A DNA stretch of 58,890 bases from a virus (IMGVR_UViG_2526164617_000008), one strand, 5' to 3'. Positions 11,094 through 31,548 are shown, counted from the stretch's first letter. Program-made: numbers and translations. Notes: generated from the sequence alone by a model not told the origin.

Positions 11094-11254
11094 TTTATCA
11101 GTTCGCTCCCATCCGTACCAGTCCGCAAAATCCCCTGAATATCAAGCCTTCCGTATATTCACGGTTCGTCATGGTTCGCGTCAGATCGTTGACAGCCGCA
11201 CTCCATGACGGGTAAAAAGTGGATAAAATAATTTTACCCACCGGATTTTTACCC

Positions 11255-12412
11255 ATGCTCACCGTTAAGCAGATTGAAGCAGCAAAGCCGAAAGAAAAAC
11301 CATACCGCCTTCTCGATGGTAATGGCCTGTACCTTTATGTTCCTGTATCCGGGAAAAAGGTATGGCAGCTTCGCTACAAGATTGACGGTAAGGAGAAAAT
11401 CCTGACCGTCGGAAAATATCCGCTTATGACTTTGCAGGAAGCAAGGGATAAGGCATGGACTGCGAGGAAAGACATCTCGGTTGGCATCGTTCCGGTAAAG
11501 GCGAAAAAGGCTTCGTCTAACAACAATTCATTTAGTGCGATTTACAAGGAATGGTACGAGCACAAGAAGCAAGTCTGGTCAGTAGGCTATGCAACTGAAC
11601 TTGCCAAAATGTTTGATGACGACATTTTACCCATCATCGGCGGTCTTGAGATTCAGGATATTGAGCCGATGCAACTGCTGGAAGTAATCCGCAGATTTGA
11701 AGATCGCGGTGCAATGGAGCGAGCCAACAAAGCCCGCAGAAGATGCGGCGAGGTTTTTCGTTACGCTATTGTCACCGGAAGGGCTAAATATAACCCGGCA
11801 CCTGACCTTGCAGACGCCATGAAAGGATACCGCAAGAAGAACTTCCCGTTCCTTCCAGCAGACCAGATGCCTGCATTCAACAAAGCACTGGCAACATTTT
11901 CAGGAAGTATCGTATCGCTCATTGCGACCAAAGTTTTACGCTACACAGCCCTAAGAACAAAAGAGCTTCGTTCCATGCTATGGAAGAACGTCGATTTTGA
12001 AAACAGGATTATCACCATCGACGCCAGTGTGATGAAGGGACGCAAAATTCATGTGGTCCCGATGTCAGACCAGGTGGTTGAACTTCTCACTACGCTAAGC
12101 TCAATCACCAAACCAGTCTCAGAGTTTGTTTTTGCCGGGCGCAACGATAAGAAGAAGCCAATCTGCGAGAACGCGGTATTGCTTGTGATCAAACAAATCG
12201 GCTATGAAGGTCTGGAAAGCGGTCACGGATTCAGGCATGAATTCAGCACGATTATGAACGAGCACGAATGGCCTGCTGACGCTATTGAAGTGCAGCTGGC
12301 ACATGCCAACGGCGGATCTGTGCGCGGTATTTACAACCATGCTCAGTATCTCGATAAGCGCAGAGAAATGATGCAGTGGTGGGCGGATTGGCTTGATGAA
12401 AAAGTGGAGTAA
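11255..12412 (+). CDS. intS: Tyrosine integrase adjacent to argW (IntS / P4-type)
   Basis: Phage integrase N- and C-terminal features (GFRHEF...HANGG...RGIYNH..Y); start taken at MLTVKQ, alternative upstream start at 11219. Confidence 0.85.
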   Translation: MLTVKQIEAAKPKEKPYRLLDGNGLYLYVPVSGKKVWQLRYKIDGKEKILTVGKYPLMTLQEARDKAWTARKDISVGIVPVKAKKASSNNNSFSAIYKEWYEHKKQVWSVGYATELAKMFDDDILPIIGGLEIQDIEPMQLLEVIRRFEDRGAMERANKARRRCGEVFRYAIVTGRAKYNPAPDLADAMKGYRKKNFPFLPADQMPAFNKALATFSGSIVSLIATKVLRYTALRTKELRSMLWKNVDFENRIITIDASVMKGRKIHVVPMSDQVVELLTTLSSITKPVSEFVFAGRNDKKKPICENAVLLVIKQIGYEGLESGHGFRHEFSTIMNEHEWPADAIEVQLAHANGGSVRGIYNHAQYLDKRREMMQWWADWLDEKVE

Positions 12413-12632: not shown

Positions 12633-13111
12633 TACGTTCGCCCTGGACTGTTGCGATCGTGAAGCCATAGACTGGGCCGCAAGCACGGGAGGTTACGATA
12701 AAGCGACAGTGCAGGATGTCATGTTAGGAGCGATAGAAAAACGCTTTGGCGATAAAGTACCGGAACAGTCCATCCAGTGGCTGACAGATAACGGTTCAGC
12801 GTATAGAGCGCATGAAACACGGCAGTTCGCCAGAGAGTTGAATCTGGAGCCCTGCACAACGGCAATCAGCAGTCCTCAGAGTAATGGAATGGCAGAAAGG
12901 TTCGTGAAAACGATGAAGGAAGACTACATCGCGTTCATGCCGAAACCGAATGTAAGAACGGCATTGCATAATCTTGCAGTGGCGATCGAACATTACAATG
13001 AAAACCATCCGCACAGTGCGCTGGGTTATCGCTCTCCGCGAGAATATCGACGTCAGCGGGTAACGTTAACTTAAGATACACCCCCTGTCTGGAAATAAGG
13101 GGGCAAGAACA
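12633..13111 (+). mobile_element. IS2-like (IS3 family) fragment: 3' half of orfB plus terminal inverted repeat
   Basis: ...[16 protein letters not shown]...[13 protein letters not shown]...[12 protein letters not shown] parallels IS2 InsD C-terminus; IR-like ctgtctggaaataagggggca at the end. Confidence 0.55.
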
Positions 13112-15390: not shown

Positions 15391-15972
15391 TTACCCTATA
15401 GGTGCTACTGGCCATTCAATATCCGGTGCAGTTGATGTATCAACACGGTTCAGCAACACCCGATACTTTTTCCAGGCTTCCAGCAACAAGGTTTCTTTCT
15501 CCGTTGCGATCTCCAGATCCACAGCATCCTGAAGCGGCGCTATATGCTCACTGGCTACCTGCATCAGGCTGTTTTTTGTTTCTTCCGCCTCCCGGATCCG
15601 GAACAGTTTTTCTGCTTCCGTATCCTTCACCCAGGCTGTGCCGTTCCACTTCTGAAACTCCCCTTCCGGGGATAACCAGGTGACATTTTCCGGTAATGAG
15701 CCGAGTTCAGAAATAAATAACGCGTCGCCGGAAGCCACGTCATAAACCGTTTTACCCCGATGATCTTCAACGAGATGCCACGATGACTCATCACTGTTGA
15801 AAACAGCCACGAAACCAGCCGGAATATCTGGCGGTGCAATATCGGTACTGTTTGCAGGCAGACCTGTATGAGGCGGAATATATGCGTCACCTTCACCAAT
15901 AAATTCATTAGTTCCGGCCAGCAGGTTATAAATTTTTATGGTCCGTGCTTGTTCACTCATTCTGAATGCCAT
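15391..15972 (-). CDS. tfa: Tail fibre assembly protein Tfa
   Basis: 193 aa, lambda Tfa-like, directly downstream of stf. Confidence 0.8.
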
Positions 15973-19119: not shown

Positions 19120-19636
19120 TCAGAATTTATAACCGACACCCACGATGAAACCGTCAGTGCGCCAGAGACGTGTTGCTGTGGCGACCGTCATCACTTCCGG
19201 TCAGCACATCGTGCGTTTTCCCCTTATTGTCAGTTACGCGGATATAATCCCCGGAAAAAGTCGACACACGGCTGTAAGCCACACCCGCCATCGCATACGC
19301 GCTGAACCATTCATTCACGCGCACAGACGGCCCCGCCATCACGCTGAACCAGCGGTTACGCACGGAATCTTCATGCCAGCGGGTATCGCTGTAACGGGTC
19401 AGCTGGCGATTCTTGTCTCCTGCATAGCTGAATGACGTCACCAGCCCCAGCGTATCCGTAAACTCATAACGGTATTTCACGTTAATCCCGTTCAGATCAT
19501 CACTGCCGGGAACGTTGGTCCGGGCATGAAGATACCCCGCGCTCAGCGTGGACTGATGTTCAGACGCCCATGCAGGCGCACCGGATACGGCCAGGCAAAT
19601 GGCTGCGGACAAAATGGCTGCACAAACTTTACGCAT
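19120..19636 (-). pseudogene. lom: Lom outer-membrane protein (Ail/Lom/PagC family) with internal deletion near the 3' end
   Basis: Signal peptide and barrel match lambda Lom to ...HSNTSLA; the conserved C-terminal DGFIVGVGYKF is in another frame about 30 bp downstream; about 104 bp missing. Confidence 0.75.
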
Positions 19637-19706: not shown

Positions 19707-22700
19707 TCAACGAATACTGATGCCGGAAGCCGCTTTTTTGGTCACAATCACCGTACAGTCGGTGATATTGCCTGCCCCCTGATTGCCTTTCTGGAAAATC
19801 TTAAACTCCAGAGTGACGCTACCACCACCACTAGGCATATCAATAACTGCACTGTAACTACCGGGAATGGCACCTTTAGTTTCTCTGGATGCGATTAATA
19901 CGCCGTTTTTGCGAACTTCAAAACCATAACCCGTGTATCGCGTGCCTCCTGGGTTATTTCCGCTCCCCGGATCGTCATACGCTATACCGTTAAAAATAAT
20001 GGGCGGAATAATAATCTGGCGGTCAAAGTTATGATCATCGCTTATGGTGACTGTAACCGTCCCGTTTGGTGTTTCCGTGTTACCCCACGTACCAGCCTGT
20101 TTCGGAAATGATTTGGATACAGCTTTAACGAAGTCACCTCTGACCTGAGTCGCCTCCAGCATGCCCTTAATCGTACAGTTTTCATTTACCGTGACATTGT
20201 TGAGCGTCCCGGCGTTCGCATTCACACTGCCACTGATATCCGCATTTTTAGCGGTCAGCTTTCCGTCCGGAGTCAGGGAAAATGCCGATGGATTTCCACC
20301 GCTGGTAATGGTGGGGGCCGTCAGGCGTTTCAGGAACACGTCGTTCATGAATATCTGATCGCCCTGACCAACAAACATCGGTTTTGTGTTGCCATTCGCA
20401 GGATTAACCATCGCAATCCTGTCCGCCGCCAGCAGCACCTGACTCTGCATGCCGTCAGGGGTGTTCTCAATACCGGCACCAATACCCGCGATATAAAGGC
20501 GTCCGTCCTGCATCTGCTGCAGCTTCACAGCCCACATGCTGTTCAGGTTATTATTTGTATCAACCTGAACCTTCTGTATCTGCTGAATTGCCGCACTCTG
20601 GTCTTCCAGTTTCTTATTGACGGTCTGCGTGATTTCATTGCTGACATCCGTAATGGACGTCCTGATTTCAGCCAGGTCAGGCGCAAGCTGACCGTTATCA
20701 ATCTGCGTCCACAGCTCCTGAGCCAGATGGGTTTTCCCTATCTCGCCTTTGAAAAAATCCAGATAACCGGATGCATCATCACTCGGCTGACCAACAGCCT
20801 CCACGAATGCCGATTTGCCAACGGTGTTCACACTGCGGATATAAAAGTAATAATCATGGCCCGGTTTGATATTGATACTGGCGGCTATCCAGTACAGCGC
20901 CGTGCCAAGATAGCGTGCTGTGGTTTCAACCTGCCTGATATCCGCAATCCGCTTTTCCGAGAACCAGAACTCAAACTGTACCGTCGGATCATAAACCGCA
21001 AGATGCGGCGTGGCGGTTATCTGAAAATAGCCCGGCGTCAGCTCAATCCGCGACAGCGCTGCCGGTGCGGCAATCCGGAACGATACCGACGCCGGATCGC
21101 CCTGCTGCCCCCACGCATTTACTGCCCGGACTGTCAGCCTGTAGTTCCCCAGCGCCAGTTGTGTGAAGCGGTAAGTGGTTTCCGTCGTCCGGGCCGTGCT
21201 GACCAGCCGCTCACTGCCGTCATCCGCTGTTACGGTCAGACGGAGCAGGAAGCTCACGCCCTTCACCACCTTCGGCGTGTCCCAGCGCGCCAGCACCTGA
21301 TATTCCCCGCTGTCTGCGGTGACTTCGGCAGTCAGGTGCTGCACCGCTGGCGGCGTGACACCATTCACCGTGCCGCTCTGGTCGCCGTCAAAGTGCGCCC
21401 CGTTATCCACGATGGCTTCTTTTTCCGGCACATGCTGCACGGCGGTGATGGCATACGTGCCGTCGTCGTTCTCACGGATACTCACGCAGCGGAACAATCG
21501 CTGGTGCAGCGTCGGCAGCTTCAGCCCCCACACGCTGTATTCAGCAACACCGTCAGGAACACGGCTCACTTTTACCTTCACGCCGTCGGTGACGGACTGG
21601 ACCTCCACGCTGACCGGATTCCCCTGCCCGTCAACCAGGCTTATCAGCGTGGTGCCGGAGGATGGCAGCGTGATTTCACGGTCGAGCGTCAGCGTCCGGG
21701 TCTGGCTGTTCACCGCCAGCACGCGCCCGCCGGTGCGGATACCGGCATAGTCATCATCGCAGATTTCAATGACATCGCCCGGTACATGACGAAGCCCTTC
21801 AGCACCCACGCTGAAATCCACGGTCTGCGTCTCCAGCAGTTCCGTTTTAATCAGCCACAGCCCGGCGCGGTGTGCCTGCCCCCGGCTGGTACAGCCAAAG
21901 GCATCCATCTTCGTGACGTTACGACCGTAACGGACAATGGCCTGCGTATCCTCCACAAGCTCTGTCGCCGTCTCCCAGCCGTTATCCGGGTCAATCCAGT
22001 TCACCTCAACGGCATTATGGCGGTCTTTCAGGGCGCTGAAACTGTAGCGGAACGGCGCGCCATCATCCGGCATCACCACATTACTGCGGTTATAGGCCCA
22101 CACCTTATCCGACTGTCGGTCCTGCACGAACGTCAGCGTCTGCCCGTTCCATACCGGCATACAGCGCATCGCCGAGCAGAAATCACTGAGCACATCCCAC
22201 GCCTTGCGCTGTGTGGTCAGCCAGGCATTACAGGTGATGCGCGGCTCCGTGCTGCCAAAGCCGTCCGGCACCGACTGGTCACAGTACTGGCCGATGACAT
22301 ACAGCGCCCATTTATCCACATCTGCCGCACCAAGACGTTTCCCCATGCCATAGCGCGGATGGGTCAGCATATCCCACAGACACCAGGCCATGTTGTTGCT
22401 GTATGCCGGTTTTAACGTTCCGTCCCAGATACCGCTGTATTGCCGCGTCTGCGGATTATAGTTCGACGGCACCTGCAGAATGCGCCCGCGAAGATGATAA
22501 TTACGGCTCACCTGCTGGCTGCCGAACTGCTCCGAATCCACCTGTACGCCGACCAGTGCCGTGTTCGGGTAGCACTGTTTCACATCGATGATTTCGGTGT
22601 ATGACGACCAGAGCGTTTTGTTCTGCAGCTGGTCTGTGGTGCTGTCCGGCGTCATTCTGCGCATCCGGATATTAAACGGGCGCGGCGGCAGGTTATCCAC

Positions 22701-23204
22701 CACCACCGAGGCCAGATACTGCGAGGTGGTTTTGCCCTTAATGGTGATGTCTTTTTCCGTCACCCAGCCACCGTTACGCTGTATCTGAACCAGCAGGCGA
22801 ACTTCAGACGGATTCCTGTCTCCCTTTGAGGTGGTTTCCACCAGTGCCTGTACACCGAAGGTAAAACGCAGTCGGTCAATGTTTGCCGACGTGATGGTCC
22901 GGGTGATCGGCGTGTCATATTTCACTTCCGTACCCAGCACCGTCTCGGAGCCGGAGGATTCAAATCCCTCCGGCGGTGACTGCTCCTGCTCACCTGCCCG
23001 GAACACCACCGTGACGCCGGAGATGTTGGTATTCCCCTCACTGTCCAGCACCGGCGTACTGTTCAGCAGCACGCTTTTTAATCCATCCACCGGACCTTCA
23101 ACCGGCCCTTCGCTGATGGCATCGATCACACTCAGCAGCTGCGTGGACTTCAGGTTGTCCTTCGCTTCGCGCGGGGTATGCCCCTTACTGCTGCCTTTAC
23201 CCAT
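19707..23204 (-). CDS. J: Tail tip / host specificity protein J
   Basis: 1165 aa, lambda J-like along its length. Confidence 0.9.
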
Positions 23205-23264
23205 TCGTCATGCTCCATAAACGATAAAACCGCCCGGAGGCGATTTCACATAAAACATTTTGCA

Positions 23265-23936
23265 TCAGCGACCAATCACCACAACCTGACCACCGTCCCC
23301 TTCGTCTGCCGTGCTGATCTCCTGAGATACCACACGTGACCCCACGCGCATTTCACCATACAGAACAGGCATAACATTGCCCTGGGCAACCATGTTATCC
23401 AGTGAGGAGAAATAGATGTTCTGCTTACCGTTATCCGTTGTCTGTGTGCGGGGAGTTCTGGCTTTCGGTGCCAGCATCTGAGCCACACCGCCGAGCACCA
23501 TACTGGCACCGAGAGAAAACAGAATGCCGGTCATACCACCGGCACCAATGGCAGCCCCCCATGCTGCAAGGGTGGCTCCGGCGGTAAAGAATGATCCGGC
23601 AATGGCGGCTGCTCCCAGGACAATCTGGAATACACCACCTGACTTGGCCCCGGCGACTCTGGGAACAATATGAATCACAGCGCCGTCAGGCAGAGCCTCA
23701 TGTAACTGCGCCGTTAATCCGGACGTGCTAACATCCTGCCCGGCAATACGCACCTGATACCAGCCGTCGCTCAGCTTCTGACGAAACGCAGGGAGCTGTG
23801 TGGCCATCGCCCGGATGGCTTCGGCACCCGTTTTCACACGAAGGTCGATGCGGCGGCCAAATCGTTGCAAATCCCCGTAAAGGCAGATGCGTGCCATGCC
23901 CGGTGACGCCAGAGGGAGTGTGTGCGTCGCTGCCAT
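23265..23936 (-). CDS. I: Tail assembly protein I
   Basis: 223 aa, MAATHTLPLASPGMARICLYGDLQRFG, lambda I-like. Confidence 0.85.
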   Translation of the reverse strand: MAATHTLPLASPGMARICLYGDLQRFGRRIDLRVKTGAEAIRAMATQLPAFRQKLSDGWYQVRIAGQDVSTSGLTAQLHEALPDGAVIHIVPRVAGAKSGGVFQIVLGAAAIAGSFFTAGATLAAWGAAIGAGGMTGILFSLGASMVLGGVAQMLAPKARTPRTQTTDNGKQNIYFSSLDNMVAQGNVMPVLYGEMRVGSRVVSQEISTADEGDGGQVVVIGR

Positions 23937-24577
23937 TTGTCGGTATACCTCTCTCGTTTGCTCAGTTGTTCAGGAATATGGTGCAGCAGCTCGCCGTCAC
24001 CACAGTAAATGGCGGCATGATTCGGCACCGATGAACCAAAACAGCACAGCAGCACATCGCCCGGCTGCGCCGCTGACAACGGCACCTGATACAGCCCTGT
24101 GGCCTCCAGATTATCCAGATAGAGATTCTGACCGTGACGCCACCAGTCATCCTCACGATGAAAATCCGGCATCTCAATCCCCGCCAGATGGTAAGCATCC
24201 CGGAACAGCGTGTAACAGTCCGTCACCCCGTGCTCAAAGCGCCGCCCGGTAAGATGTGGCACACAGCGGAACTTGTGAATCGCCCCCCGGCAGACCAGCC
24301 ACCACGGCAAATCACTCTGCACCTGCAGCCGCCGGTCGGCCTCACTCAGCCAGGGCAGACCACCGGGGTGGCTGTGGACCAGTGCCACAATCTCACCCTG
24401 CATCTCTGCCTGCAGCCAGTCTTCCGGCGACATACGGAAATACGCCTCCGGCTCACCGGAGATATTCACGCAGGGGAAATATCTTTCCCCCTCCGGCGTT
24501 CTTACCACGAAGCCGCACGACTCCGCTGGAGCACATCGCCGGGCGTGCGCCAGAATCGCTGATTCTGTCTCTGTCAT
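23834..24577 (-). CDS. K: Tail assembly protein K (MPN and NlpC/P60 domains)
   Basis: MTETESAILAHARRCAPAESCGFVV...; 3' end overlaps I. Confidence 0.85.
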   Translation of the reverse strand: MTETESAILAHARRCAPAESCGFVVRTPEGERYFPCVNISGEPEAYFRMSPEDWLQAEMQGEIVALVHSHPGGLPWLSEADRRLQVQSDLPWWLVCRGAIHKFRCVPHLTGRRFEHGVTDCYTLFRDAYHLAGIEMPDFHREDDWWRHGQNLYLDNLEATGLYQVPLSAAQPGDVLLCCFGSSVPNHAAIYCGDGELLHHIPEQLSKRERYTDKWQRRTHSLWRHRAWHASAFTGICNDLAAASTFV

Positions 24578-24582
24578 GGGAT

Positions 24583-25281
24583 TTACTGCGAAAGTTTGTT
24601 AATGGAAAGGAAGCCGCCAAAGTTGCCGACGTTATTGCGAAACTTACAGCCACTCAGGCATTTGCTGCATTTATCCTTCGTGATGTCGGACGTTGGCTGG
24701 TCATATTCATCCGCGACCGCCGGACCGTGATAACCGCACTCATCGCCGCGATAGGTCCAGGTGCAGGTGTTGGCCAGCATGATACGTCCCGGAAAAACAG
24801 CGCCATCTGTTTCCGTCGGCGTGGACAGTACAAAAGAGGCACTCACCGCGCTCAGTTCGCTGCACTGCTCAATGCGCCAGCGGCTGATCACCTCCTGCTC
24901 CGGATCGGCGTCACTGTTTCCGTTGACGAAGTTCACCGCATCCAGAAAACGGGCGTAAACCTTACGCCGGACCACCGTTCCGCCGACCAGACTCTGTAGA
25001 TCTTCCGCCATCCCGGTGACCATACCGTACAGGTTAGAAACCATCAGCGTGGGGCGCGTACTGGTGCCTTTGCCATTCAGTTCAAAACCACTCCCCTGAA
25101 TGGGATACGGCTGATACTGTCGCCCCTGCCAGGTGACCGGCTCACCTTTTTCGTTCTGCTCATTACAGAAAAAATAACGTTCTCCACCGACCTCTGTCAG
25201 ATCGATTTCCCAGAGCACCACGCTGGCCGACTGCTCCGCACGGGTGCATTCATTCAGTGTTTCCTGCCGGATATCCTGCAT
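24583..25281 (-). CDS. L: Minor tail protein L
   Basis: 232 aa, lambda L-like. Confidence 0.9.
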   Translation of the reverse strand: MQDIRQETLNECTRAEQSASVVLWEIDLTEVGGERYFFCNEQNEKGEPVTWQGRQYQPYPIQGSGFELNGKGTSTRPTLMVSNLYGMVTGMAEDLQSLVGGTVVRRKVYARFLDAVNFVNGNSDADPEQEVISRWRIEQCSELSAVSASFVLSTPTETDGAVFPGRIMLANTCTWTYRGDECGYHGPAVADEYDQPTSDITKDKCSKCLSGCKFRNNVGNFGGFLSINKLSQ

Positions 25282-25610
25282 CAGTTCACCACCTGTTCAA
25301 ACTCTGCGCTGAACTCAACACGCAGCATACTGACCCGCGACGACCATTTTGCGCAGGTCACCTTTATCTGCCGCCACTCATAAGGCGGCGTCCACAGAAA
25401 GGCTTTCCAGCCCCCGTGCTCTTCCAGAAACGACTCCAGTACCATGGCCTCCTCACGGGGGACAGAAAGCGTCACGCTGTACGTTTTCAGGTTGGCATTC
25501 AGCCCGGCAGGCGCTCGCTGGGAATAGCCATCACCAAAGCGCACCTTTCTTACAGAAGGGGCCGAAGCCACATCCATACCGGGTTTCACTTTCCAGCGGA
25601 AGGTTTTCAT
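25281..25610 (-). CDS. M: Minor tail protein M
   Basis: 109 aa, lambda M-like. Confidence 0.9.
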   Translation of the reverse strand: MKTFRWKVKPGMDVASAPSVRKVRFGDGYSQRAPAGLNANLKTYSVTLSVPREEAMVLESFLEEHGGWKAFLWTPPYEWRQIKVTCAKWSSRVSMLRVEFSAEFEQVVN

Positions 25611-28167
25611 CGTCCACCTCCGGAGAACAGGCCACCATCACGCATCTGTGTCTGAATTTCATCACGGGCACCCTTGCGGGCCATGTCATACACGGCCTTC
25701 ATCATCTGTGGACCTGGCAGACCATTCGTACCGTCGTTCTGAATCACCACGTGATTGTTCTGATTAAAATTAATGCCTTCAGCCCGCCGCATCTGCGCCG
25801 GACTTCCGGCACCGCCCACATAACCACCTTCCGCATAGCCGCGCATCAGCCGGTAGAGATTCCCCACGCCAATCCGGCTGGTTGCCTCCTTCGTGAAGAC
25901 AAATTCACCACGGTGAACAATCCCCGCTGGCTCATATTTGCCGCCGGTTCCCGTAAATCCCCCGGTTGCAAAATGGAATTTCGCCGCAGCGGCCTGAATG
26001 GCTGTACCACCTGACGCGGATGCGCCGCCACCAACAGCCCCGCCAATGGCGCTGCCGATACTCCCGACAATCCCCACCATTGCCTGCTTAAGCAGAATTT
26101 CTGTCATCATGGACAGCACGGAGCGGGTGAAGCTGCGCCAGTTCTGTTCACTGCCGGTCAGCATCGCCGCCATATTCTGTGCAATACCATCAAAGGTCTG
26201 CGTGGCTGCACTTTTAACCTGTGACATACTGTCCGTGGCGCTCTCTTCCCACTCACTCCAGCCGGACTTCAGGCCTGCCATCCAGCTCCCGCGAAGCTGG
26301 TCTTCAGCCGCCCAGGTCTTTTTCTGCTCTGACATGACGTTATTCAGCGCCAGAGGATTATCGCCATACTGTTCCTTCAGGCGCTGTTCCGTGGCTTCCC
26401 GCGCTGCCTGCCGGTCAGTCAGCCCCCGGTTTTTCGCATCAATGGCTGCCCGTTTTGCCCGTTGCTGCTGTGCGAATTTATCCGCCTGCTGCGCCAGCGC
26501 ATTCAGGTGCTCCTGATACGTAACCTTGTCACCAAGTGCAGCCAGCTGGCGTTTGTACTCCAGCGTCTCGTCTTTATGCGCCAGCAGGGATTTCTCCTGT
26601 GCGGACAGCTGGCGACGTTGTGCCGCCTCCTCCAGTACCGCGAACTGACTTTCTGCCTTCCACAAATCCCGGCGCTGCTGGCTGATTTTCTCATTCGCTC
26701 CGGCATGCTTCTCCAGCGTCCGGAGTTCTGCCTGAAGCGTCAGCAGGGCCGCATGAGCACTGTCTTCCTGACGATCGCCCGCATACACCTTCACGCCGGA
26801 CTGTTTCGGCTTTTTCAGCGTCGCTTCATAATCCTTTTTCGCCGCCGCCATCAGCGTGTTGTAATCTGCCTGCAGGATTTTTCCGTCTTTCAGTGCCTTG
26901 TTCAGTTCTTCCTGACGGGCGGTATATTTCTCCAGCGGCGTCTGCAGCCGTTCGTAAGCCTTCTGCGCCTCTTCGGTATATTTCAGCCGTGACGCTTCGG
27001 TATCGCTCTGCTGCTGCGCATTTTTGTCCTGTTGACGCTGTTGATCTACCCTCTTTTGGGCTGCATCCCGCTCCAGGCGTTTTTTTCACGATCATCCCAG
27101 TAACGCGCCCGTGCTTCATCGTTAACGAAATAATCATCCTTGCGCAGATTCCAGATGTCGTCTGCTTTCTTAAACGCAGCCTCTGCCTTAATCAGCATCT
27201 CCTGCGCGGTATCAGGACGACCAATATCCAGCACCGCATCCCACATGGATTTGAATGCACGTGCAGTCCTGTCTGCCCAGGTCTCCAGCGTGCCCATGTT
27301 CTCTTTCAGGCGGCGGGTCTGGTCATCAAACCCTTTCGTTGCGGCCTCGTTCGCCGCCTGCAATGCCCCGGCTTCATCGCCGGAACGCTGCAACTGAGCA
27401 ACATACGCAATCTGCTCCGCCGTCACGTTATGGAACTGGCGTGCCATCGCCGTCAGCCCCGACGTCGGGTCTGTGGTCAGCTTCCCGAAGGCTTCAGCGA
27501 CCTTGTCCACCTCCACGCCGGATGCAGAGGAGAAACGCGCCACACTCTGGCTGATGGACGCAATCTGAGCCTCACCGCTTACCCCCGCCTTAACCAGTGC
27601 GCTGAGTGACTCGCTGGTCTGGTTAAACGTCAGCCCTGCCGCCTGCCCGGCTCTGGACAGGACCAGCATACGATCTGCCGTCAGTCCCGCCTGATTACCG
27701 GAAAGGACCAGCGTTTTGTTGAAATCGGACAGGGTTGAGTTGCCCTGATACCAGGCATACGCCAGCGCACCGGTCGCCACCGCCAGCGAGGTGGCCCCCA
27801 CCATCGGCAGGGTGATCGCGCCGGCAAGCCCCCTGAACATGGGGATCATCCCGCCGAAGGAGTCCTTAACCTGACCACCCTGTTGCAGCAGGATCAGCCA
27901 GGGATTCTGCCCCCCTGCAAGCTGCGTGGCCACGTCGGTGAACTGTGCAGGCAGCATACGCATGGCGGCTTTATACTGCCCGACGGAAATCCCCGCTTTC
28001 TGTGCAGCCAGCGCCTGTCGGCTCAGCGACTGTTCAACGACTGCCGCTGTTTTTTTCGCATCACTTTCCGTACCGGAAAAATGACGCCTGACTCTGGCCA
28101 TCTGCTCGTCAAATCTGGCCGCATCCAGACTCAAATCAACGACCAGATCGCCTACCGGTTCAGCCAT
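25607..28167 (-). pseudogene. H: Tail tape measure protein H, split by a frameshift in an A7 homopolymer
   Basis: N-part (27046-28167) and C-part (from about 27085 down to 25607) are in different frames and together give about 854 codons; switch at coding-strand A7 run (plus 27079-27085). Confidence 0.8.
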
Positions 28168-28594
28168 ACCGGACTCCTCCTGCGATCCCTTCTGATACTG
28201 TCATCAGCATTACGTCATCCTCCGTCATGTCCGCCACATCCGGGGAAGCGGGGATAACTTCATTCCCGTCCGGGCCAAAGCGGACACCTCCGGCAAGCCC
28301 TGCCGCTTTCTGCATCAGCACATCATCTTCAGGCTCTTCGTCAGCCTCGCGCCGGTTCAGCAGACTGAAATCCAGCGGATGCATCTCCGGATCGCTGAAA
28401 AACAGGCTGAGCACGGTGTACGTCAGCCCGGAAAAGTGCATATCCAGCAGAACATCATGAAAATAATGGGTACTGTAAAAGCGGTGCCAGTCGGCATACT
28501 CCGTGGATGACATCCCGGCAAGCATGGCGCGCCAGTCGGGTCGCCCCATCTCACGCGCCAGTTTCAGGGCAAAACTCAGCTCACCGTCGAACAC
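28160..28594 (-). CDS. T: Tail assembly chaperone T frame (expressed as G-T fusion by -1 frameshift)
   Basis: 144-aa frame overlapping the 3' end of G. Confidence 0.8.
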   Translation of the reverse strand: MFDGELSFALKLAREMGRPDWRAMLAGMSSTEYADWHRFYSTHYFHDVLLDMHFSGLTYTVLSLFFSDPEMHPLDFSLLNRREADEEPEDDVLMQKAAGLAGGVRFGPDGNEVIPASPDVADMTEDDVMLMTVSEGIAGGVRYG

Positions 28595-28998
28595 TTTCCC
28601 GCAGAAACAGGCTCTGCAGGCCCGGCGTCCTCTGCCTGTTCAGGAGCATCATTCACCACAAACTCATACATACCGGACAGCCGGTACACCACGTTTTCAG
28701 CATGAGAAATTGCCTCTGTGGGCCAGGTGGTAAGCACTTCCTGCTCAATCTGTTTAACGGCTTCATTCATGGACGGCATCTGCGTCTTCTTCGGATGGTT
28801 ATGCCACAGGGACATCGCAACCACAAAAGCGCCGGTTCTGATGGCGTCTTCCACAGTAAACTTCCGGTTGCTGTCTGACTCCGCCTGTTCTGCCTGCCGT
28901 TTCATCAGGTCGAGATGCTCAATACGCTGCAGGGCTGACAGTTCAGAAAGCGTGACGGTCACACCGTTATGTTCAAATGATTCGGTTTTCAGGAACAT
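28576..28998 (-). CDS. G: Tail assembly chaperone G
   Basis: 140 aa, lambda G-like, ends ...SAGKCSTVS. Confidence 0.85.
   Translation of the reverse strand: MFLKTESFEHNGVTVTLSELSALQRIEHLDLMKRQAEQAESDSNRKFTVEDAIRTGAFVVAMSLWHNHPKKTQMPSMNEAVKQIEQEVLTTWPTEAISHAENVVYRLSGMYEFVVNDAPEQAEDAGPAEPVSAGKCSTVS
28594..28600 (-). promoter_or_regulatory. Programmed -1 ribosomal frameshift slippery heptamer GGGAAAG (G to G-T)
   Basis: Minus-strand G GGA AAG at the G/T overlap, as in lambda. Confidence 0.6.
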
Positions 28999-29013
28999 CG
29001 CTGACTCTCCGGA

Positions 29014-29754
29014 TTAACTGGCGGTGACGTTGATTTCTGCAACCGCAGCAAACTCACCATTACCAGATACGACCGGAATGTTGACCTTGCCTGCAGCAAC
29101 ACCTTTCACGGTGATGGTCATACCACTGACCGACACGGTGGCTTTTGTTTTATCCGCAGACACCGCACGGAAGCTCTTGTCGGTTGCGCCATCCGGCTGG
29201 AATGCCACGGTCAGCGTGGTGCTCTGCCCTTTCACTACGGAAGCACTGGCGGGTGTCACCGTCATGCCGGTCGTCGCCGTCACCGTGCTGCGATCTTCTG
29301 CCATCGACGGACGTCCCACATTGGTGACCTTCACCGTGCGGGTAATCACCTCCTTCGCCGTCACCGCCTTACCGATACTGCTGACCCAGCCACGGAACAC
29401 ATCGACCGTGCCGTTCGGGAAGCGGATTTTATAGGCACGGGTATCACCTTCATTAAACCACGCCAGCAGCGCCTGCTGCCCCTGCTCTCCGGGCATCCAC
29501 GCCAGCGTGAAGCTGGTATCTCCGGCAGATTTCTGCCCCTGCCCGGTCGCAGTCCAGTCTGCATCTTCATCATCGAGATAGCTGTCGTCATAGGACTCAG
29601 CGGTCAGTTCGCCGGGCGTCAGGTCTTTAACTTTTGCCAGACGCGACCAGTCAACGTCTGAAAGCGGGTTCGCATAAGGGTCACCGCTCCCCTTATAAAC
29701 CCACAGGGTGGTCCCGGCACCTTTCACCGGCATTGTAGGATTTGGTACAGGCAT
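29014..29754 (-). CDS. V: Major tail protein V
   Basis: Start taken at [14 protein letters not shown] (246 aa); ORF track extends 10 codons upstream. Confidence 0.9.
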
Positions 29755-29761
29755 AGCGTCC

Positions 29762-30157
29762 TCACATTTCATAGATAATGACATAAGTCAGATCGGCTGA
29801 ACTCCACAGGCCCGCATCATCGTCGCGCCGGTAGTCATAGCCGCTGGCCACCATACTGGTGATCAAATCTGACAGTGCCGGGATATCGCTCATCACCGGA
29901 TAAATCCGGGACTCCATCCACGAATCCAGCTCTGAATCCGGCACCTGAGCAGGCAGGAAAACTTCAATATGCAGCTCCGCCTGCCAGGTATCGCTGTCCA
30001 GCTCTTCGCCCGTGTATTCAGCGCCGGTGAGATAAACGGCAATTGCCGGAAAATCTTCCTCATCAAAAACAGCGGGGCGACCATCAAAAAGCGTCGCCCC
30101 GGTGTCATGCTTCTCCAGTGCATCCAGTACGGCTGCACGGAGTTCAGTATGTTTCAT
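29762..30157 (-). CDS. U: Tail terminator protein U
   Basis: 131 aa, lambda U-like. Confidence 0.9.
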
Positions 30158-30732
30158 CGCTTTATTACCATTCTCAGTTGATGCTGCAGCGCATAGCCCA
30201 GCTCTTTCGGAAGACGTTCACGCCGTATCCGTTCAATATTCTGTTTAAACGCCGTGGTCAGCGGCACCGCCATCGGGATTTTCACCACATCAATGGGGTA
30301 ACGGTTTTTCCCGGCCACACGCTGCATAACATGCCACCGGCCGTTTTTCAGTTGCTGAATAAACGCGCCGGGAATACGACGGTTACCCACCACAAGCACG
30401 CTGCCGCCACCTTTCAGGGATGAACGCTGCCCCTTTTTATGACGCCTGCGGCGGGACAGGACAACCCGCGCATTACCCAGCTTGATTACGGGCAAATCCC
30501 CCCGGTTAACTTTGATTCTGGCCTGCGGATTTTTGACCGTGGCCCTTTTCAGCCTGGCCCTTTCCTTTACCAGTTTCCGGCGTACCTTTGTCTCACGGGC
30601 AACCTGTGACGCAGACTGCGATATCGCGGATGAAGCAACGCGGTTAATGGCCATTGCGGCGGCACCGGGCACCGCCGTTTTGCTGATACGGCTGAGGTTT
30701 TCAACGGCCTGCTCAAGACCTTTTATGGCCAT
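30154..30732 (-). CDS. Z: Tail completion protein Z
   Basis: 192 aa, lambda Z-like. Confidence 0.9.
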   Translation of the reverse strand: MAIKGLEQAVENLSRISKTAVPGAAAMAINRVASSAISQSASQVARETKVRRKLVKERARLKRATVKNPQARIKVNRGDLPVIKLGNARVVLSRRRRHKKGQRSSLKGGGSVLVVGNRRIPGAFIQQLKNGRWHVMQRVAGKNRYPIDVVKIPMAVPLTTAFKQNIERIRRERLPKELGYALQHQLRMVIKR

Positions 30733-30743
30733 ACATCCCCCTT

Positions 30744-31097
30744 TCAGCGGCGACGGTTAACGGCAGGCGGTACGCCCCGTCCAAGCCAGAGATGACAACT
30801 TCCGCCATCATCCGGCGAAACCCGATCTACCCAGAAATTTTCCTCACCGATGGTCAGCGTGTCTCCACGCCGCAGCTGCCGCACCTCATCAGTCCGGACA
30901 AACAGGGACGGGCTGGAGCCTTCAACGCGCACGCCCTGTCCGGCATAGCTGATATTTTCAGGGTCATCAAAAACACCACGTATCACCGCACCTGACTGCT
31001 CACCGGATGTCATGGTGGCTGACGTTCCCATGTACCCGCGTATCGTTTCATCGGCGCGGGCAATGGCAGCATCGAACAGGTTATCGAAATCAGCCAC
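30744..31097 (-). CDS. FII: Head-tail connector protein FII
   Basis: 117 aa, lambda FII-like. Confidence 0.9.
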   Translation of the reverse strand: MADFDNLFDAAIARADETIRGYMGTSATMTSGEQSGAVIRGVFDDPENISYAGQGVRVEGSSPSLFVRTDEVRQLRRGDTLTIGEENFWVDRVSPDDGGSCHLWLGRGVPPAVNRRR

Positions 31098-31108
31098 AGC
31101 GCCTCCCG

Positions 31109-31507
31109 TTATTGCATTCTGGCCAGGCCGCGCTCTGTCATTTCGGCTGCCACACCGGCAGAGACACGAAACGCCGTTCCCGGCAGCACAAATGCCACAG
31201 GTTTATCCCGCGTGGCGTGAAGTGCATCAGTATGCAGCGTCACCAGTGCCACGACCGTGACCAGTTCAGCCGTATCCTGAATCACGGTATCCGGCTGCGC
31301 TGATACCACCTCATTTTCATGCCCGGTCAGCACATTTTCCCGGCTGAGAGGGGTGTCCTGACCGGCAGTTTCATCCGTGTCATCAAGCTCTTCTTCCAGC
31401 TCTGCCACACGAAGCGCCAGTTCTTCTTTCGTTCCCGTCAAACTGACATCGCGGTTCAATTGCTCACCCAGCTCCTGAAGACGGGCAATCAGTTCATCTT
31501 TCGTCAT
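31109..31507 (-). CDS. FI: DNA packaging protein FI
   Basis: Start taken at MTKDELIARL (132 aa). Confidence 0.85.
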   Translation of the reverse strand: MTKDELIARLQELGEQLNRDVSLTGTKEELALRVAELEEELDDTDETAGQDTPLSRENVLTGHENEVVSAQPDTVIQDTAELVTVVALVTLHTDALHATRDKPVAFVLPGTAFRVSAGVAAEMTERGLARMQ

Positions 31508-31548
31508 GAACTCCTCCACAGAGAGAAAATGGCCCCGAAGGGCCATGA

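Follow-up and report, generated by a model that had tools for sequence, protein, structure and literature searches.

The split tape measure gene H of a Shigella sonnei lambda-type prophage: an A7 tract that is A8 in intact relatives

Gene H and the prophage that carries it

The window, by which we mean the whole stretch of 58,890 nucleotides analyzed here, is the complete contig AKND01000037.1 of Shigella sonnei 3233-85 (GCA_000268005.1). A lambda-type late operon runs along its minus strand from 19.7 to 38.5 kb, with the genes Nu1, A, W, B, C, D, E, FI, FII, Z, U, V, G, T, H, M, L, K, I, and J. The homologue of lambda H, a lambda-type tail tape measure gene, lies on this strand at 28167..25607, with its start at 28167 and its stop codon ending at 25607. 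Its position between T and M is that of a lambda-type tape measure gene, where the G/T chaperone genes are followed by H and then M. Upstream, G (28998..28576) and T (28594..28160) together span 28160..28998 on the minus strand; their known programmed -1 site (G_GGA_AAG, 28600-28594) is preserved, with the GT fusion open throughout. Downstream, M (25281..25610, minus strand) adjoins H and overlaps its stop as in lambda. Over the full length of the gene, the DNA of H is 95.5% identical to that of lambda H (J02459, 10542-13103).

As recorded, H comprises 2561 nt (mod 3 = 2) and is distributed over two frames with a single break. The single continuous ORF of ~853 codons seen in relatives with an A8 tract is absent from the window. 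A sequence-only reading of this DNA had reported the split, and the record confirms it. The product of the 5′ ORF (27046..28167, minus strand, zero frame) is 373 aa long; its last 12 residues are out of frame (NAWSGMQPKRG*), up to a TAG at 27048-27046. Its C-terminal end is ...DDREKNAWSGMQPKRG, also given as ...YWDDREKNAWSGMQPKRG. The 3′ part (25607..27085, minus strand) consists of 492 codons plus a stop in the -1 frame, which is frame 2 of the reverse complement. Its open stretch extends from 27085 through 25607, starting with AAA AAA CGC (KKRLERDAAQ...), with KKRLERDAAQKRVDQQRQQDKNAQQQ... as its first residues. Precomputed Pfam assignments place TMP_2 on the 5′ piece and Tape_meas_lam_C on the 3′ piece. 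GenBank lists the two pieces separately, as EIQ42862.1 (373 aa) and EIQ42861.1 (414 aa), the latter annotated from the first ATG within the 3′ part (25607..26851, minus strand). The two frames overlap at 27046..27088 (minus strand), from a -1-frame TGA at 27088-27086, which includes the first A of an A7 run, to the zero-frame TAG. Any frame change giving full-length H must fall in this interval, as it is the sole stretch with both frames open.

Lambdoid similarity takes in the structural genes, continues past the lysis genes, and ends near 48,325. This stretch includes Rz (42486-42956), a lysozyme gene (42941-43438), a porin gene (44942-46084), Q (46273-46671), RusA and YbcO genes, and a NinB-like gene (47691-48146). 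Beyond ~48.3 kb, the window holds IS21 (49653-51595), IS1, and lacY (52329-53576) instead of a replication/immunity region; at the same point, intact relatives (L023) continue with P, O, and a repressor module. An IS3-family element (39788-41061) and an IS1 (~43.9-44.6 kb) are also present. Because of these IS insertions and the missing immunity and replication modules, the prophage is a defective remnant with no lytic cycle on its own, and H is therefore not under purifying selection. The earlier expectation that an inactive H would block tail assembly accordingly carries little weight here: the phage similarity already ends near 48.3 kb, and the element is a remnant irrespective of H. Strain-specific lesions occur elsewhere in the same remnant. 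In Ss046 and CP026802.1, 65 bp are missing inside tfa, which is frameshifted, and CP026802.1 has a G5-to-G4 change splitting J besides an A9 tract in H.

Length of the A tract in related sequences

The frame of H breaks at an A7 run of the coding strand (T7 on plus), 27080..27086, one base rightward of plus 27079-27085, where the sequence-only reading had placed it. The sole indel in alignments with relatives falls exactly there. The A7 run alone is unremarkable, because the 58.9-kb window contains 15 homopolymers of length 7 (and none of length 8 or more). The significant point, on sequence comparison, is that this particular run aligns with A8 in every intact relative.

The earlier reading had proposed a comparison with the same prophage in related genomes. 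S. sonnei Ss046, six near-identical IMG/VR contigs, and E. coli ACN002 all have A8 and an intact H. Ss046 (CP000038.1) encodes an 853-aa H, and ACN002, the closest complete E. coli genome (97.7%), an intact, annotated H of 2562 nt. Scanned with a pattern open to any run length, IMG/VR yielded nine contigs, every one of them A8 (9/9). Six of the nine match the window at 99.9-100% identity across 1.5-14 kb (window 21021-39608). The run is the sole indel between the window and each of these six, and also the sole indel within the prophage when Ss046 is included, a change confined to a homopolymer. Equivalent pattern scans for the tract gave zero matches in GTDB species representatives and zero in JGI metagenomes.

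Because the 3′ piece is read in the -1 frame and the intact relatives are all A8, the window appears to have lost one A from an A8 tract. Restoring A8 in silico gives 2562 nt, or 854 codons including the stop, and a protein of 853 aa, the exact length of lambda gpH. The frame also closes if two A are removed. The sequence-only reading had joined the pieces by removing a single A; translation of the A5-A11 alleles shows that A6 instead opens the third frame, with a stop after 446 aa. Its estimate of ~854 codons, the size of lambda H, is therefore right with one A added and wrong with one A removed, and the A6 tract with a continuous frame that it named as the refuting result lies in the wrong direction, the closed frame being A8. 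At the level of sequence comparison, these alignments show A8 as the ancestral intact state and place the lesion at the run.

The A8 tract occurs solely in a rare H variant with a ~60-nt mosaic patch (...REKKRLERDAAQKRVDQQRQQ... vs ...REKARLALEAARKKAEQQTQQ... in lambda), and lambda has A4 at the tract position. By short-query megablast, the patch is carried by 1 of 5,426 complete E. coli genomes, namely ACN002. As ACN002 alone has this H variant, a census of A7 vs A8 is not obtainable from complete E. coli genomes.

Alleles were instead counted by exact protein look-up of H products across public contigs. The intact 853-aa product of A8 was found on 484 contigs for the window haplotype, on at least 1000 contigs for an S214Y/A728V haplotype (named Shigella sonnei or Shigella), and on 142 contigs for the ACN002 haplotype. 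The 373-aa N-terminal fragment expected from A7 was found on three contigs with the window protein sequence and on two with S214Y. The 447-aa N-terminal fragment expected from A9 was present on one contig of the window haplotype (CP026802.1) and on two S214Y contigs (Logan). Fragments corresponding to A6 or A10 were found on 0 contigs for both haplotypes tested. The 414-aa C-terminal fragment, which reports any upstream break, was found on four contigs for the window haplotype and nine for A728V. Overall, H is a single A8 ORF on >1,600 contigs vs split on roughly a dozen.

The three contigs with the 373-aa fragment of the window are the window itself, ERR13881969, and GCA_023621225.1. The latter two have an ACN002-like DNA background, with CGCTTGGAG adjoining the run and 62-64 differences in H. 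For SRR26135312, one of the two S214Y contigs, A7 was confirmed in its DNA. The A7 and A9 variants together account for ~1% of assemblies emitting these proteins, which is a lower bound because pseudogene-flagging pipelines emit no protein; they depart from A8 in both directions and occur on at least three haplotypes. A7, A8, and A9 are all found on otherwise identical or near-identical sequence. These counts show, as far as assemblies report it, that the tract is polymorphic in length and that it repeatedly gives rise to split-H annotations in assemblies of Shigella and E. coli.

Slippage mutation or sequencing artifact

The explanation we favor, to which we assign about an even chance, is a genuine contraction of the poly-A tract in H from A8 to A7. 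Replication slippage would have removed one A from what is the longest homopolymer of the region, and the A7 allele would be common by descent to two closely related 1985 isolates, 3233-85 and 3226-85. Translation would then end after 373 residues, with loss of the C-terminal 490 residues including Tape_meas_lam_C. In established lambda genetics, the tail initiator would not assemble after such a loss of the C-terminal part of gpH. The lesion would nonetheless be selectively neutral, since its host element was already a defective remnant. An incidental -1 slip at A_AAA_AAC might yield full-length gpH (K363N), at a sub-percent level at most, and some wild-type gpH might arise via transcriptional slippage. 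For this account to hold, we infer that A7 is present in the DNA itself and not only in the assembly.

The second assembly, S. sonnei 3226-85 (AKNC01000068.1, GCA_000268045.1), has a neighboring accession, stems from the same sequencing project, and is also A7. It differs from the window over 21,245 bp by 3 SNPs, one of which gives T301I in H, and by no indel. Because no indel separates them over this length, neither sister assembly shows scattered homopolymer errors there. A shared A7 with no unshared indel over 21 kb, in a gene that is unselected, supports a real mutation. So does the agreement of the window with other sources: apart from the run, there is no indel against the IMG/VR contigs over 18.6 kb, and none over 3.7 kb around lacY. 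Further support comes from outside this project, where A7 occurs on two other haplotypes (ERR13881969 and GCA_023621225.1 on one, SRR26135312 and one similar contig on the other) and A9 occurs in CP026802.1 and two Logan contigs. Against a mutation, A7 on the DNA haplotype of the window is confined to the two assemblies of a single project, GCA_000268005.1 and GCA_000268045.1, and the affected tract is the contig's longest homopolymer, the kind of site at which platform errors cluster.

These observations also lend weight to the principal alternative, a sequencing or assembly artifact, which we regard as a substantial possibility that falls somewhat short of even. The genome would then truly be A8 and encode an intact 853-aa H, with the same one-base under-call in both assemblies. 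Every near-identical prophage from other sources is A8, and the exact repaired protein is found on 484 contigs. With no homopolymer of length 8 or more anywhere in the 58.9-kb window, a true A8 would be the sole one. The contig also contains a second poly-A contraction: the IS1 copy at 6897-7662 has A5 at 7346-7361 vs A6 in Ss046, and the remaining four IS1 copies of the contig are all A6. In addition, the contig bridges five IS1 copies, while 20 of 22 contigs with this lacY are only 2-5 kb long and the three lacY contigs that were fetched run into IS1 at one end. Such bridging hints, by inference alone, at a 2012 assembly from long-insert data of the 454 type. 454-type chemistry is prone to homopolymer under-calls. 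A literature search by strain or accession for the sequencing platform of 3233-85 returned nothing relevant.

Homopolymer errors in this gene family do reach databases. The records of the plaque-forming phages PhiR49_1 and PhiR70_1 have H split at G runs, and CP026802.1 combines A9 in H with the G5-to-G4 change in J. The split H of PhiR49_1 and PhiR70_1 was also considered as an instance of a tolerated or programmed shift and rejected as such; the breaks are at G runs close to H nt 253 and 291 and are irrelevant to the A tract. Weighing against an artifact in the window are the lack of unshared indels between the two sister assemblies over 21 kb, the lack of any other indel over the 18.6 kb and 3.7 kb compared, and the A7 and A9 alleles in unrelated assemblies on other haplotypes, which make real length variation plausible. 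The sequence-only reading had offered an inactivated H or a sequencing error as alternatives. Both hold up, and we do not choose between them. A tail-defective score for this prophage hinges on one base of the contig's longest homopolymer.

Possible bypass of the A7 run and known systems

In the A7 allele, the zero frame reads GAA AAA AAC, which places the heptamer A_AAA_AAC in register and the continuation of H in the -1 frame. The heptamer conforms to the slippery pattern X_XXY_YYZ, and no stop interrupts the -1 frame between the run and the end of H. After a tandem -1 slip, reading resumes at CGC, where the continuation begins, and the product would be 853 aa long with K363N as its only change. 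A_AAA_AAC is also the heptamer used by IS1, where no stimulator is established (PMC4066793). In E. coli it belongs to the low-efficiency class, with >0.10% shifting in the absence of stimulators vs a background of ~0.055% (PMC4066793). Homopolymer indels with low-level compensatory frameshifting, and runs of 9 A or T as sites of transcriptional slippage, are both described in a review (PMC5009743).

These features bear on a third explanation, in which the split is functional: H would be expressed by recoding, through a -1 shift or transcriptional slippage, or the tract would act as a phase-variable ON/OFF switch of tail production. The register, the continuation in exactly the -1 frame directly after a -1-frame stop, the measurable shifting at the IS1 heptamer, the four occurrences of the identical IS1 site (CACTTAAAAAACTCAGG) in the window, and the existence of A7, A8, and A9 among assemblies all speak for it. 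The evidence to the contrary is more extensive, and we consider this explanation very improbable. A8, which needs no recoding, is found on >1,600 contigs vs roughly a dozen with a split H, so that the two-frame arrangement is not conserved among homologues, and A7 is conserved on no haplotype. For the 89 nt downstream, the fold of -18.5 kcal/mol is no better than the shuffle mean of -19.5 (z = 0.40), and an Rfam search of 25000-29200 gave no match. A_AAA_AAC is of low efficiency in E. coli (PMC4066793). gpH is a stoichiometric structural protein, and a sub-percent leak would give very few tails. A prophage lacking its early region has no phage life cycle to regulate, and as for a switch, ~99% of assemblies are ON in an element that is defunct. 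IS1 is likewise without a known stimulator, and a missing stimulator alone is therefore compatible with a weak site.

With neither a stimulator nor conservation of the split arrangement, the A7 frameshift is not programmed (the sequence-only reading had not counted it among known programmed events), and the A_AAA_AAC register is a by-product of the deletion. A sub-percent -1 leak at this heptamer is nonetheless conceivable on mechanistic grounds, by analogy with IS1. Nothing points to selection for such a leak: A8 is overwhelmingly common, and gpH is needed stoichiometrically. We think it highly doubtful that A7 is both real and leaky enough, whether by a ribosomal -1 slip or by RNA polymerase adding an A, to supply full-length gpH for occasional tails. 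Were this true, the A8 tract would be a natural dimmer of tail production whose length flips among A7, A8, and A9 across lineages of Shigella and E. coli. The remaining proposal, that A7 holds one A too many over an intact A6, has nothing in its favor beyond the coincidence of run and frame break and can be discarded, since 2561 - 1 = 2560 nt leads into the third frame and termination after 446 aa, all intact relatives are A8, and the A6 product is missing from the protein collection.

The closest known counterpart is lambda gpH itself (J02459 gene H, 853 aa). The window H shares with it 95.5% DNA identity over the whole gene, the position between T and M, the TMP_2 and Tape_meas_lam_C domains, and, once the tract is A8, its length. 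It differs in the ~60-nt mosaic patch with the A tract (A4 in lambda) and in the broken frame. The G-T shift of lambda (G_GGA_AAG) is located in the same operon, ~1.5 kb upstream of the A7 run, and is likewise a -1 event at an A-rich heptamer. Whereas the break in H is a private lesion, long-tailed phages conserve the G-T shift, which fixes the ratio of its products.

At the IS1 insA-insB′ site, too, this heptamer occurs in the same codon register, the following ORF is in the -1 frame, and no structure lies downstream. The IS1 arrangement, however, is conserved and needed for transposase, whereas the H heptamer would derive from a one-base deletion, is absent in almost all relatives, and its expression is putative. 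The ‘savior’ indels in the G run of herpesvirus thymidine kinase, and the poly-A pseudogenes that endosymbionts read through by transcriptional slippage (PMC5009743), also involve one-base indels in coding homopolymers that are potentially bypassed in part. Those cases have a measured product and a selective rationale, whereas bypass in H is hypothetical and its host element is defunct. Homopolymer contingency loci resemble the H tract in that its length varies in both directions (A7, A8, and A9) among related strains. In contrast to such loci, the H tract is short, ~99% ON, and located in a prophage remnant.

The split H is an ordinary one-base homopolymer change, a slip or a miscall. Its biological weight is small, amounting to either routine decay of a defective prophage or a routine draft-assembly error. 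The value of the comparison is corrective: the intact state of this tract is A8, not A6.

Tract length in H across S. sonnei assemblies

The A8 tract that keeps the tape measure gene H open in relatives is due to a mosaic patch of ~60 nt (27030-27090, minus strand), which reads KKRLERDAAQKRVDQQRQQ where lambda has KARLALEAARKKAEQQTQQ. Among 5,426 complete E. coli genomes just one carries this patch, whereas in S. sonnei it is the standard allele. The A7 form seen in the window is also present in AKNC01000068.1, a contig of S. sonnei 3226-85, whose assembly and that of the window are sisters from one project. Over 21,245 bp the two differ by only three SNPs (window positions 27266, 18813, and 18811), one of which gives T301I in the N-terminal fragment of H. 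In the complete S. sonnei genome CP026802.1 the tract is A9, leaving a 447-aa N-terminal fragment, and a G5-to-G4 change, at the place that corresponds to window 21112, splits J. Homopolymer indels in this genome number two within 21 kb, and the sequence is near-identical apart from these.

A shortened poly-A run was also observed in one of the window's IS1 copies (6897-7662, minus strand). Its frameshift motif (7346-7361, CACTTAAAAACTCAGG) carries A5 rather than A6; A6 is found at the same locus in S. sonnei Ss046 and in the four remaining IS1 copies of the window. Either the -1 frameshift site of this copy has been lost, or the contig has here a second poly-A under-call.

Other lesions of the prophage remnant

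The tail fibre assembly gene tfa (15391-15972, minus strand) retains in the window an internal 65 bp (15786-15850) missing from Ss046 and CP026802.1, and in both of these genomes the deletion shifts the tfa frame. This is one prophage remnant, with lesions that differ between strains. The Lom ORF (19154-19636, minus strand; 160 aa) matches Pfam Ail_Lom over positions 1-159 of 199 and appears to be truncated at its C-terminus; the Ss046 ORF is in the same state.

Elements flanking the prophage

A Mu-like prophage is represented by its right end (186-5456), with genes for a Gin-type invertase (390-962), a SASA/DUF6645 protein of 684 aa (1048-3102), and Mom (4396-5328); elements of the IS110 family and IS1 come next. 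A tyrosine integrase (11219-12412, plus strand) adjoins the tail-fibre end of the lambda-like prophage, with a transposase fragment (rve_3; 12709-13074, plus strand) and then IS1 after it. This position is at odds with the simple map of a lambda prophage. A rearrangement, or another element integrated alongside, is suggested by it.

At the other end, the prophage stops abruptly at about 48325, past a NinB-like gene, giving way to IS21 (istA, 49653-50822; istB, 50834-51595), IS1, and lacY (52329-53576). Together with about 2.3 kb 3' of it, lacY is flanked by IS1 at 51.7-52.2 kb and at 55.8-56.5 kb; in most other assemblies the contig that holds this stretch is just 2-5 kb long.

Comparison with lambda and plaque-forming lambdoid phages

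H is annotated as two CDS in the plaque-forming lambdoid phages PhiR49_1 (PV340568.1) and PhiR70_1 (PV340577.1). These splits result from one-base deletions in G runs, at about nt 291 and about nt 253 of H, respectively, and are probably sequencing errors of those deposits. Near the end of G, the window carries G_GGA_AAG (28594-28600, minus strand), the canonical slippery site of the programmed -1 G-T frameshift of lambda, and the GT fusion is open through to the T stop.
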